The position numbers were made by a program. From a virus (lineage: Duplodnaviria; Heunggongvirae; Uroviricota; Caudoviricetes): a DNA stretch of 64,000 nucleotides. The stretch is taken from IMG/VR virus record IMGVR_UViG_2627853701_000009; one strand, given 5' to 3'. Of this stretch, positions 46,601-49,600 are shown one piece after another (positions within the stretch are counted from its first letter, which is position 1; each line of letters opens with the position of its first letter).

Positions 46601-49600
46601 GGTTTATCGATTTCAAATCCCTGGATATGTTAAGTCTTCAGGCCAGCGGTGGAGTCTTCAGAGAACCCGTAATTATTCCCGGTAGTTTTCCTCTGTAGGT
46701 TATCAACACATCCTGCGCCTCTAAAATTACGGGACGCTTTTCCGGTAACGGACCATCCCCTTCACATAACCCGGCAGCAACATCCATGAAAAACTGCTTC
46801 GCCTGCTTTTTCGCCTCAGCTTCGTAAAACTCCAGCGTGGCACCTTCAGTACGGTCAAGACTAATCGCCACATCTGGCAACAACAGTGACGGATACCCAC
46901 CAATTTCCGGTGCCACAGTAACAGTAATCTTATCCGGGTAATTATTTATCCCTTTAACAACCAGTTCGTATTTTTTCTTCATCACTTTACTCTCCCCGCG
47001 CCGCCTTACGCCGGTCTTCTTTAATCTTGAAATACAGGTTCGTCAGATATGTCAGCAGCCCAAACAGCAGACTCCCCAGCACGCCTATCGCCACCCACTG
47101 GGACGGAGAGACTTTGTCCAGCAGCTGCAGTAACCAGTATCCCGTCCCCACCGCTGACGTGGTGTATGACACACCCGTTGTGATTTTTTCCATCTGGTAC
47201 ATACCCCGTCTCCCGTTATCCGGAAGCTGACAACAATAAAAAAGCCACCAGTTAACTACTGATGGCTCTGATAACTCATGCAGCGTCTCAGACGACCCAC
47301 TGACACTACCGGTGAGTTTAACGATACCTTCCATTTGACTGGCTCACTTTTTATGATGATGCCGGTGCATTTATCTCCAGCACCAGACTTTCTATCTCAA
47401 CGCCATACGCTGCATTTTTTGTAACATCCGTCAGCGTCAGCGCATTCAGTCCCAGTGTCAGACTGTCTTTTATAACCTGGAATGCCGGGCCAGCCACTCC
47501 ATTCAGTTTCGGAGTAACCGTGGCACTGCCGGCGGTGAACACCAGCTCCAGCGTCTGCCAGTCGTTACCGTAATCGCCGAACTCCCCCAGCTTCGTGTTT
47601 CCGGCTTTCCTGTGATGCATCAGATTCACTCTGCCGTCAGTGGTCTGAGTGAAGTACGACATCAGGAACGGATTACCGGTACCCGTCATCGCCACACCAT
47701 CAGGAACGGGAGCATCCGTATACAGATAAATCCCCAGCCCGAACTGATTGTTGGTCAGTGCGCCTGACAGGCGGAACTTACAGTTCAGTCTGCCGCCCTG
47801 TGTCAGCAGGGTAATTGCGTCATCCACCGGATGCGTCAGGGACCAGGTTTTATTGCTCTGCCTGGTGATCTTAAATACACCATCTGACAACTGAATTCCG
47901 CCATCCTTAATGCTCCAGCCCTGCGCAGCAGCCTCTCCGGCTGCCGGCAGCAGGGAGATTGTGCGAACGGACGTATCTGCAGACGGACCCGATGGCGTGT
48001 TGCCGCCGGGCGAGGGTTTGATTTCCGGTGCCTTACCACTGATGAAGCTGAGGTGCGCCCGGCTGCGTTCAGAATAGCGGTTGCCAGCCCTCTTTCAGTT
48101 TGTGTGTCAGCTTTTCCGCAAGGTCTGACGGCGACGCCGCCCTGACAACATCATAATGTTTAAATGTCATTATTCCTCCCCTTTCCGGGATTTTCCTCAA
48201 CAGTTGCGGGCCACGGTCCGGCCACAAGGAGAATCAAAAGAGGAGAACCGCAGCCCGCAAAACGAAAAAGGCCGCGCAGTTGCGCAGCCTTATAAACCCT
48301 GGTTAAAATCCACACGATAAAAATGACAATGCAAGTATCTCATGCTGTTGCCCGAACCCACTCGGGCTTTTTTTTGCATGTAAAAAGGCTCCTGCGATGA
48401 GAAGCCTGGATATATGCCTAATCTCTGTATACAGCATGATGCCGGGTGCCTCCCGGTGAATTCTGCAATGACCAGACAGAATCCGCAACTTGCCTATACA
48501 ATACGCAACCAAACATCTGTCATTATGCCCCGCCGCTCAGGGGGATTCATCATGCAGGATTTTTTTAACAAACGCTCAGCATGTCAGGCAACAGTCAACT
48601 GCCTGAATTGTGAGGCATTTAACATTTCACTGTCCGGTGTCTTTCCTGTAATAAAAAGCCCGCAAAAGAGAGTCAGGGCAGATAAGTGTGGTGTGGTGCG
48701 TTGTACTGGATTCGAACCAGTGACCGATTGCTTAGAAGGCAATTGCTCTGTCCGGCTGAGCTAACAACGCAGAATACCGATAATGGACCGCCACCGGGGA
48801 CTCCGAATCTCGCACAGGGTGACGTTCTTTCCTGATGAGCTAGTGGCGGTTGGTGGCCCTTGCTGGATTTGAACCAGCGACCTGGCGATTATGAGTCGCT
48901 CGCTCTCACCGCTGAGCTAAAGGGCCGATTGCTGAATAATAACGACGCATGATTAACTCCGCAATCTCATCCGTTACGAATGATTAAATCCTGTACTTCC
49001 CGCACCGTCTGCTCAAAACGTTCAGTCTCCAGTTCAACGCCAGTTGCACGACGTCCCAGCGCCATCGCTGCTTTCACTGTCGACCCCGACCCCATGAAGA
49101 AATCTGCAACCAGGTCTCCCGGACGACTGCTTGCGCTGATTATCTGCTGCAACATTTCTGCCGGTTTTTCGCACGGATGTTTCCCTGGATAGTACTGCAC
49201 CGGTTTATACGTCCACACATCGGTGTACGGCACCTGCACCGTCACACCGAAATACCGCCGCAGATGCTTATATTCACTCTGCAGCTCCGCATACTGTCGG
49301 TTCAGAGAGGCATACGTATCCACCAGCTGGTGGTGGGGCTTTTCCAGTTCACCCCGCTGATGCTTCTCTTCTGCCACCCGGGCAAACAGTGCCTGTAATT
49401 TCAGATAATCGCTTTCGTTCGGCAGCTGCCACTGACCGGCACTGAACCAGTGCGACACCATGTTTTTCTTTCCTGTGGCATCTGCAATCTGTTTTGCCGT
49501 TATCCCCAGGACAGCGCGCGCATCACGAAAGTAAGCAATCAGCGGGGCCATCACATGCTGTTTCAGTGTCCTACCCTTCGCCTCATACCCGGCATCTTTC

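Follow-up and report, generated by a model that had tools for sequence, protein, structure and literature searches.

The split reading frame on the minus strand of this 64,000-nucleotide stretch of DNA (the whole of it, hereafter the window) is, with a probability that we put at roughly 95%, a non-functional deletion remnant, or pseudogene, of the prophage gene nanS-p. The remnant is not new, as it is already flagged as a pseudogene in public E. coli O157:H7 genomes, and we found no evidence that contradicts the pseudogene reading. NanS-p proteins are 9-O-acetyl-N-acetylneuraminic acid esterases of EHEC prophages (z1466/L0105 of 933W; vb_24B_21, which is gp84, of phi24B) that are annotated as yjhS or "SASA family carbohydrate esterase", and their genes occupy the same slot as the remnant, after the tRNAs or moron site and immediately before the holin gene. 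A first-pass annotation had described the locus as a single moron gene of about 270 codons, of unknown function, that was split by a frameshift. Its view that the two pieces derive from one broken gene holds, but the ancestral protein had 617 amino acids and three domains, and the damage consists not of one frameshift but of an internal deletion of 1,033 bp (gene nt 90–1122) together with, in the window, a 1-bp deletion. Matches to PDB entries 3PT5 and 6YP6 assign the parent to the NanS-p 9-O-acetyl-sialic-acid esterase family, so that its function can no longer be called unknown.

On the minus strand, a 33-codon reading frame (ORF1, 48170..48069) is followed by a stop-free frame of 247 codons that contains no ATG and ends at 47351; the elements described in the first-pass annotation are all present. 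ORF1 begins with an ATG at 48170, encodes MTFKHYDVVRAASPSDLAEKLTHKLKEGWQPLF and stops at a TGA (48071–48069); a Shine-Dalgarno sequence, GGAGG (48175..48179, minus strand), can be read directly 4 nt 5' of the ATG. ORF1 is made up of NanS-p residues 1–31, corresponding to about 29 of the 53 positions of DUF1737, followed by two out-of-frame codons (L, F) and the TGA. The deletion junction, a single copy of CTGGCA, lies within it at 48082..48087 (minus strand), and in the intact gene there are two copies 1,033 bp apart. Translations place ancestral codons ~374–386 (ATAILNAAGRTSA) at 48048..48081 (minus strand) in a third frame, distinct from those of ORF1 and of the C-terminal domain. The site of the additional 1-bp deletion follows at 48047 (minus strand), where a single C replaces CC and CAGCCTTC becomes CAGCTTC. 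The remainder (47351..48046, minus strand) encodes NanS-p residues 387–617 and the stop codon, comprising a Pro/Ser/Gly linker and a lectin-like jelly-roll (DUF6645) with no start of its own. The long frame is +1 relative to ORF1 and runs without a stop to a TAA at 47353–47351. Its first 16 codons, KRAGNRYSERSRAHLS, are out-of-frame nonsense, the ancestral reading of this DNA being ATAILNAAGRTSA in the third frame; in the corresponding remnant of strain TW14359, frame 3 reads continuously from GLATAILNAAGRTSAFISGK onwards. The earliest codon of the long frame that could serve as a start (ATG, GTG or TTG) is a TTG at 47890, codon 69, which lies 180 nt past the ORF1 stop and is already about 34 residues into the stretch that aligns with the 6YP6 domain; the nearest AGGA is 13 nt away, a poor spacing.

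In Pfam searches ORF1 matched DUF1737 (E 4e-11, profile positions 1–29 of 53) and the long frame matched DUF6645 (E 1e-18), and the retained C-terminus matched the PDB entry 6YP6, "NanS-p" (E 1.8e-30, chain residues 13–218). These domain matches show that neither frame is there by chance. The part that has been deleted, taken from an intact gene, matched chromosomal NanS (YjhS; PDB 3PT5) with an E value of 2.3e-123. This protein is homologous to the lost ancestral portion and lacks both DUF1737 and DUF6645, and no NanS-homologous sequence is left at the locus in the window. The intact paralog WP_000143079.1 carries DUF1737 (residues 3–49), SASA (66–262) and DUF6645 (467–577), and the Pfam scan detected no SASA domain in either fragment or in their conceptual fusion. 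The fused 273-residue protein proposed in the first-pass annotation, when searched against Pfam, gave just the two partial domains and nothing further. It differs from the ancestral protein, which joining the frames does not restore: the long frame opens with KRAGNRYSERSRAHLS, which is no ancestral coding sequence. When the intact 617-residue protein was compared with the window by tblastn, the only residues matched were 1–32 (48170–48075) and 386–617 (48049–47354, 99.1% identity). A functional NanS-p has a complete DUF1737 (about residues 3–53), of which only positions 1–29/30 of 53 are matched here, the rest having been deleted. It also has a SASA/SGNH catalytic domain with GQSN and RPTH/RSSH blocks, which is missing: GQSN (residues 71–74) and RPTH (356–359; counted by PMC10462455 among the variants of SGNH block IV) both fall within the deleted codons 31–374. 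Finally, a functional NanS-p has DUF6645 translated in frame, and in the window the DUF6645 sequence is present but out of frame with the sole start codon.

The extent of the deletion is defined by the orthologous site of O157:H7 strain F6294, which carries an intact gene of 1,854 nt (WP_000143067.1, 617 aa). It is one uninterrupted gene, with 1,033 bp between the parts seen in the window. Its flanks are those of the window, namely a DNA methyltransferase (WP_000935548.1), tRNA-Ile, tRNA-Arg, the holin (WP_000284517.1) and YdfR (WP_000731259.1), and the WP_000143067.1 gene is found full length at the same place in the same prophage (of the Sp9/CP-933P type with nleA/nleH/nleF) in other O157:H7 strains; relative to it, the window is without 1,033 + 1 bp. 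Gene nucleotides 90–1122 are missing, that is codons 31–374 including the whole catalytic domain. A prefix and suffix comparison with intact genes gave a 6-nt overlap at the junction and 1,033 nt absent (1033 mod 3 = 1). Direct repeats of 5–6 bp (TGGCA/CTGGCA) occur at gene nt 84–89 and 1117–1122; in F6294 the 3' repeat is ATGGCA, not CTGGCA, and the shared part there is TGGCA only.

Both retained ends are nearly identical to intact nanS-p, as expected of a remnant with a definable deletion between them, and the first 31 and last 231 residues are 97–99% identical to the intact O157:H7 ortholog. The first 89 nt of ORF1 are identical to the intact nanS-p of 2010C-3347 and of F6294, and the 529–589 nt upstream, with the Shine-Dalgarno sequence, are identical to the DNA that precedes the intact F6294 ortholog; for the upstream 589 nt and the first 89 nt, the F6294 comparison was made with the TW14359 remnant, to which the window's remnant is equal minus one C. 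At the 3' end, 737 nt match intact alleles with 0–1 substitutions apart from the 1-bp gap, and the DNA of this part shows 99.9% identity to the 3' ends of intact genes annotated as "SASA family carbohydrate esterase". The 3' part of the TW14359 remnant differs from the F6294 gene by a single substitution and exactly matches a paralog that 2010C-3347 carries in another prophage. A simple one-step history was therefore set aside, the exact match being to a paralog and the F6294 ortholog being less close.

Among 5,426 complete E. coli genomes, 28 share this junction; every one is an O157:H7 genome of the TW14359/EC4115 type, and PGAP calls two "incomplete" pseudogene fragments at the site. In TW14359 the pair is ECSP_RS33975 and ECSP_RS08645, described as "DUF1737 ... 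missing C-terminus" and "DUF6645 ... missing N-terminus". The remnants of TW14359 and the 27 other genomes resemble that of the window, with 99.9% identity over 961 nt, but all 28 read CC at the site of the window's lone C (48047), and their C-terminal fragment is therefore in the +2 frame, whereas that of the window is in +1. Each O157:H7 genome contains 11–16 places that match nanS-p, and the copies are near-identical. In strain F8492 we observed an independent remnant with other breakpoints, located in a different prophage.

Alignment of the window with TW14359 and with two intact alleles shows the one missing C at 48047, which accounts for the apparent +1 relation of the two frames, and a 101-nt junction query had a 100% match in none of the 5,426 complete genomes. 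Relative to TW14359 the window contains five single-base deletions, each beside an identical base, which suggests an imperfect consensus quality, and it is plausible, and in our view somewhat the better guess, that the deletion at 48047, alone of the two lesions at the locus, is an assembly artefact. The idea that all five are assembly errors was not retained, as the one in the lysozyme gene (46418) recurs with 100% identity in several further complete assemblies. In one such assembly that was inspected, that of 86-24, three genes within 3 kb are "frameshifted", and this assembly may itself carry homopolymer errors.

The surroundings of the locus are those of nanS-p in other lambdoid prophages. 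As the first-pass annotation had noted, tRNA genes lie upstream and a holin gene downstream. The two phage tRNA genes, one with a CAT anticodon (48926..48851, minus strand; tRNA-Ile in RefSeq) and a tRNA-Arg with a TCT anticodon (48770..48694, minus strand), were identified with ARAGORN, Rfam and the RefSeq annotation of TW14359, and the class II holin gene 3' of the remnant (46987..47202, minus strand) corresponds to the 216-nt gene for WP_000284517.1 in TW14359 and F6294. The spacer between tRNA-Arg and the remnant contains an STnc100-family sRNA in late-gene orientation (48376..48584, minus strand; full-length match to Rfam RF02076, 175 bits against a gathering threshold of 47) and, convergent with it, a short anti-sRNA of the AgvB/AsxR family (48315..48374, plus strand; AgvB 56.6 bits against a gathering threshold of 56, AsxR 46.8). 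In the latter the 3' hairpin and terminator are conserved, with a terminator-like hairpin at 48350–48367 (plus strand), and the 5' seed is divergent. Convergent sRNA pairs have been reported at this site in Sp9, where the member is named EcOnc03 (Tree et al. 2014, PMC4104026). The order on the minus strand of the window is thus methyltransferase, tRNA, tRNA-Arg, sRNA pair, remnant, holin, YdfR-like gene and lysozyme, and the intact gene is found in the same order in F6294, in 2010C-3347 and in an Stx1a phage, between the Q/tRNA/moron region and the holin-endolysin genes.

No Shiga toxin genes are present, as had been stated, since a tblastn search of the whole window with Stx1A and Stx1B gave nothing better than E 0.5. 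The proposal that the split frame sits at the position of stx does not hold, however. The Stx1a phage has the order stx1A-stx1B-yjhS(nanS-p)-holin, and the spacer between the tRNA genes and ORF1 in the window is 83% identical to the spacer between stx1B and yjhS in that phage. As the order in Stx phages is stx, nanS-p, holin, the remnant occupies the nanS-p and not the stx position, and the stx slot of the window is occupied by the known convergent sRNA pair.

The history that we propose starts from a gene that encoded a 617-residue protein with an N-terminal DUF1737, a SASA/SGNH esterase homologous to NanS and a C-terminal lectin-like jelly-roll (DUF6645), and that lay in the slot of nanS-p in EHEC lambdoid prophages, flanked by the stx/moron site on one side and the holin gene on the other. 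Illegitimate recombination or replication slippage across the TGGCA/CTGGCA repeats removed nt 90–1122, and with them went the second half of DUF1737, the esterase domain in its entirety, GQSN and RPTH blocks included, and the continuity of the frame. In the window, the further missing C at 48047 shifts the C-terminal domain from +2 to +1 relative to the start codon. Because the large deletion is the only one of the two that the 28 relatives have, the 1-bp loss is a later event or an artefact, and we infer that the large deletion came first and that the 1-bp loss, if real, came afterwards. With its ribosome binding site and ATG preserved and its position in the Q-dependent late transcript, ORF1 probably still yields the 33-residue peptide on induction. 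No esterase can be produced from the locus, activity on Neu5,9Ac2 being predicted to be absent because the catalytic domain is deleted, and translation of the lectin-like domain would not be expected without a usable start codon. The loss of this nanS-p may be tolerable because O157:H7 has several other copies; seven or more active NanS-p enzymes have been reported for the EDL933 genome (PMC8065619).

Other explanations of the locus must be weighed against this history. That it is one gene of about 270 codons with a single +1 frameshift near 48069–48097, which the repair of one base would restore, fits the overlap of the two frames near the ORF1 stop and the origin of both parts in one ancestral gene. 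Yet the intact ortholog and paralogs encode 617 residues and have the 1,033-bp segment between the parts, the parts are in a +2 and not a +1 relation in the 28 closest genomes, the long frame opens with codons (KRAGNRYSERSRAHLS) that were not part of the ancestral reading, and there is no DUF1737-DUF6645 protein of about 270 residues in the annotations that were inspected. We give this model next to no credence, and alignment with the intact ortholog already refutes it. An equally slight chance attaches to the possibility that the organism has an intact gene and that assembly collapsed or mis-joined nanS-p paralogs to give an apparent deletion. The many near-identical nanS-p copies at the 11–16 matching places per O157:H7 genome and the imperfect consensus suggested by the five single-base deletions could favour such an error, but the identical junction recurs in 28 independently sequenced complete genomes, and the deletion has a microhomology-mediated signature within one gene and orthologous flanks on both sides.

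It is also very improbable that the locus is functional, whether as a 33-residue peptide plus a separate lectin-like protein (started at TTG 47890 or by reinitiation) or through programmed +1 frameshifting. The late-operon position and intact Shine-Dalgarno sequence make transcription and initiation of ORF1 likely, the C-terminal frame is still stop-free, and isolated domains would not be absurd, as a study of phi24B (bioRxiv 10.64898/2026.04.10.717836) reports cleavage of the phage's NanS-p homologue into separate domains. The stop-free state can, however, be attributed to the youth of the remnant, since that of TW14359 has 0–1 substitutions relative to intact alleles. A start at the TTG, with its poorly spaced AGGA, would deprive the 6YP6-type domain of its first strands. 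The same phi24B study describes three beta strands and an anchoring tyrosine (Tyr42 in phi24B gp84) in DUF1737, all of which are missing from the fragment here, as it ends at about residue 31. Neither the frame relation nor a shift site is conserved, with +1 in the window and +2 in 28 of 28 relatives, so there can be no conserved recoding signal. In the same vein, there is only a very small chance that the 33-residue fragment or a TTG-started lectin-like module is made after induction and has an activity of its own, such as binding carbohydrate or mucus or interfering with the DUF1737 domains that decorate the capsids of co-resident phages; if it were so, the loss of the esterase would be an adaptive change in the O157:H7 TW14359/EC4115-type lineage.

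Taken as a nanS-p pseudogene with an internal deletion, which is its correct label in place of a novel moron, the locus has little relevance beyond correct annotation. The 1,033-bp deletion is nonetheless a clean lineage marker, carried by 28 of 5,426 complete E. coli genomes and typable by simple PCR. The locus also illustrates that redundant nanS-p copies decay in poly-lysogenic EHEC, and where functional NanS-p enzymes are counted per strain in relation to the use of mucin-derived sialic acid, this copy is to be counted as dead.

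In the window, lambdoid prophage late genes are encoded on the minus strand. Among them, and on that strand too, the split ORF comes after a tRNA gene with a CAT anticodon (48926..48851) and tRNA-Arg-TCT (48770..48694) and before the holin gene (47202..46987). A Shine-Dalgarno sequence, GGAGG (48179-48175), precedes the ATG of ORF1 at 48170; ORF1 reads MTFKHYDVVRAASPSDLAEKLTHKLKEGWQPLF and ends at the TGA at 48071-48069. The second piece, in the +1 frame relative to ORF1, is a long frame of 247 stop-free codons ending at the TAA at 47353-47351, which has no ATG and whose earliest candidate start is a TTG at 47890 (codon 69). 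Both pieces have significant Pfam matches, ORF1 to DUF1737 (E 4e-11, over only profile positions 1-29 of 53) and the long frame to DUF6645 (E 1e-18), so the first-pass annotation described the split ORF accurately and it is not a chance feature.

Window positions 47300-48260 were compared by megablast with 5,426 complete E. coli genomes. Full-length matches at 99.9% identity were found in O157:H7 strains including TW14359, EC4115, SS17 and JEONG-1266, where PGAP annotates two adjoining pseudogene fragments, a 'DUF1737 domain-containing protein, incomplete, missing C-terminus' and a 'DUF6645 domain-containing protein, incomplete, missing N-terminus'. Intact 1,854-nt genes annotated as 'SASA family carbohydrate esterase', which represent the parent gene nanS-p, share their 3' end with the query at 99.7-99.9% identity over its last 788 nt; their 617-aa product contains the Pfam domains DUF1737 (residues 3-49), SASA (66-262) and DUF6645 (467-577). 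The segment absent from the window matches chromosomal NanS/YjhS (PDB 3PT5, E 2.3e-123). What is left at the C-terminus matches the corresponding domain of phi24B NanS-p, for which there is a crystal structure (PDB 6YP6, E 1.8e-30); this lectin-like jelly-roll is described as a putative carbohydrate-binding module (PMC10462455, PMC8065619). The NanS-p family is already experimentally characterised and the remnant is already known as pseudogene fragments in RefSeq; added here are the size of the deletion (1,033 bp), its 5-6-bp microhomology, the intact ortholog, the restricted distribution and a corrected position relative to stx.

Window positions 15551-64000 are collinear with TW14359 at 99.94% identity and belong to a prophage carrying paa, nleA, nleH1-2 and nleF, which we take to be of the Sp9/CP-933P type in the nomenclature of the Sakai and EDL933 genomes. 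In O157:H7 F6294 an intact 617-aa gene (WP_000143067.1) lies between the same neighbours as the remnant, namely the genes for a DUF1133 protein (WP_000640048.1), a methyltransferase (WP_000935548.1), tRNA-Ile, tRNA-Arg, a holin (WP_000284517.1) and a YdfR-like protein (WP_000731259.1). Positions 1-15550 of the window are not collinear with the TW14359 stretch used for comparison (L003, 1679000-1728999, equivalent to 15551-64000) and match the tail genes at L003 30001-42148 only at the level of paralogs (90-98% identity), so that by sequence they appear to belong to a neighbouring, related prophage. In the RefSeq annotation of the L003 prophage, a fimbrial gene and a DUF1076 gene are frameshifted, tail assembly protein T is truncated and a C40 peptidase is interrupted by an internal stop, while its paa, nleA, nleH1-2 and nleF cargo is intact; it therefore looks like a defective prophage retained for its effectors.

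The first-pass annotation had proposed a single gene of ~270 aa split by a frameshift, a model refuted by alignment with the intact ortholog. The comparison was made with the TW14359 remnant, which equals that of the window except for one missing C. From 589 nt upstream of the gene through gene nt 89 there are no differences from F6294; the remnant then resumes at gene nt 1123, and from there to past the stop codon there is one substitution. The absent segment is thus 1,033 bp (gene nt 90-1122, codons 31-374), a length that throws the 3' part out of frame (1033 mod 3 = 1). The ends of the segment carry a direct repeat, CTGGCA in the 2010C-3347 allele (a paralog in another prophage) and TGGCA in the F6294 allele, of which a single copy is left in the window (48087-48082); such repeat-flanked loss is the usual signature of microhomology-mediated deletion through slippage or illegitimate recombination. 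The deletion removes all of the esterase domain, with the motifs GQSN (71-74) and RPTH (356-359), and also the second half of DUF1737; NanS-p has SGNH blocks, RPTH being a variant of block IV (PMC10462455).

Relative to TW14359, the F6294 ortholog and the 2010C-3347 paralog, the window also lacks one C at 48047 (CAGCCTTC to CAGCTTC). A 101-nt junction query was covered to at least 80% in only 28 of the 5,426 genomes, and none of these 28 matched it at 100% identity. All 28 align with one gap, at the missing C, which places their C-terminal domain in the +2 frame relative to the ATG; the +1 relation is confined to the window. Here the remnant is spread over three frames, with ORF1 in one, ancestral codons 374-386 (ATAILNAAGRTSA) in the third and residues 387-617 in the long frame, the head of which (KRAGNRYSERSRAHLS) never belonged to a coding sequence. 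Between the window and TW14359 there are 25 substitutions and five indels over 48.4 kb. Each indel is the loss of one base from the window next to an identical base (18259, 46418, 47283, 48047 and 59594), and three of them lie within 1.7 kb of the lysis region. This pattern points to under-called homopolymers in the source assembly. The deletion at 46418 (CCCCCC to CCCCC) splits the lysozyme (endolysin) gene, intact at 534 nt in TW14359, into minus-strand ORFs at 46587..46387 and 46390..46055; other complete assemblies share this variant at 100% identity, among them 86-24, the assembly inspected, where the gene is annotated 'frameshifted' and three genes in 3 kb are so labelled. The missing base at 48047 may be an artefact, unlike the large deletion: 28 independent complete genomes carry the latter too, which rules out mis-assembly. 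Since that deletion alone kills the esterase gene, this verdict holds whatever the status of base 48047. Programmed frameshifting, or an arrangement of two genes, is very unlikely, because the 28 genomes closest to the window do not share its frame relation and no usable start exists: the TTG at 47890 is separated by 180 nt from the ORF1 stop and by 13 nt from the nearest AGGA, and falls ~34 residues into the stretch aligned to the 6YP6 domain.

The split ORF had also been placed at the position of stx, but it lies one gene further, at that of nanS-p. The Stx1a-converting phage Stx1_14040 has the order stx1A, stx1B, yjhS (9-O-acetyl-N-acetylneuraminic acid deacetylase, that is, nanS-p) and holin, and positions 67-443 of the 523-bp spacer between tRNA-Arg and the remnant ATG are 83% identical to its stx1B-to-yjhS spacer, which would put the expected place of stx in the ~66 bp directly after tRNA-Arg. 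Throughout the window there is no stx-like coding sequence; its absence from this locus had been reported. The CAT tRNA (48851-48926) is called Met by ARAGORN and the identical TW14359 gene tRNA-Ile by RefSeq; the RefSeq call implies a lysidine-modified Ile2 type, as with the ileZ gene that Stx phages carry. Every Stx2a phage studied has nanS-p downstream of stx, and non-Stx prophages carry it too (PMC10462455).

The spacer between tRNA-Arg and the remnant ATG, at the stx/moron site, contains two convergent RNA genes identified with Rfam, a full-length STnc100-family sRNA (48584..48376, minus strand, 175 bits) and a 60-nt AgvB/AsxR-family anti-sRNA (48315..48374, plus strand, 56.6 bits, just at the gathering score). 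The latter has a conserved 3' hairpin and terminator and a divergent 5' end, its seed being unlike that of either AgvB or AsxR. This is the arrangement described at the moron sites of Sp5, Sp9, Sp10 and other prophages, of which EcOnc03, whose target was not characterised in that study, is the Sp9 member (Tree et al. 2014, PMC4104026); the anti-sRNA of the window is probably EcOnc03. A strong terminator-like hairpin on the late-gene strand (48268-48291; 10 bp, 7 GC, then TTTCGTTTT) lies ~100 nt upstream of the remnant ATG, and expression of nanS-p and the lysis genes would require Q-modified polymerase to read past this predicted terminator. The nanS-p stop and the holin start are separated by a 148-nt spacer (47203-47350, minus strand) that folds well (MFE -45.8 kcal/mol, z -2.7), contains a 12-bp hairpin with a T run behind it (47269..47241) and has no Rfam family match; the deletion at 47283 falls inside it. 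The PasA/PasC sRNA genes are placed between sialic acid esterase and holin in a 2026 preprint, so this spacer may hold an sRNA of that type.

The remnant has neither a catalytic domain nor a continuous frame, and its C-terminal part has no ATG. As it lies in a Q-dependent late operon and keeps its Shine-Dalgarno sequence and ATG, a 33-residue peptide is probably translated on induction and would then be discarded; production of the lectin-like domain is not expected. In phi24B, the three beta strands of DUF1737 and Tyr42 of gp84, a NanS-p homologue, have been assigned to capsid binding (cryo-EM preprint); the peptide ends at NanS-p residue ~31 and lacks these strands and the anchoring tyrosine. 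That the 3' part is still stop-free would reflect a young deletion (0-1 substitutions) rather than selection. Loss of this esterase copy may be tolerated because O157:H7 has several other active copies; EDL933 has seven or more (review PMC8065619), and the megablast query matches 11-16 places per genome. It is likely that nanS-p copies decay repeatedly. In O157:H7 F8492 a remnant in a different prophage (L006, 2494-3518), preceded by Q, three tRNAs, TerB and DUF3927, consists of a 327-nt DUF1737 fragment and a 711-nt DUF6645 fragment. Its breakpoints differ from those in the window, indicating from sequence comparison that it arose independently and that internal deletion of nanS-p copies would be a recurrent event.
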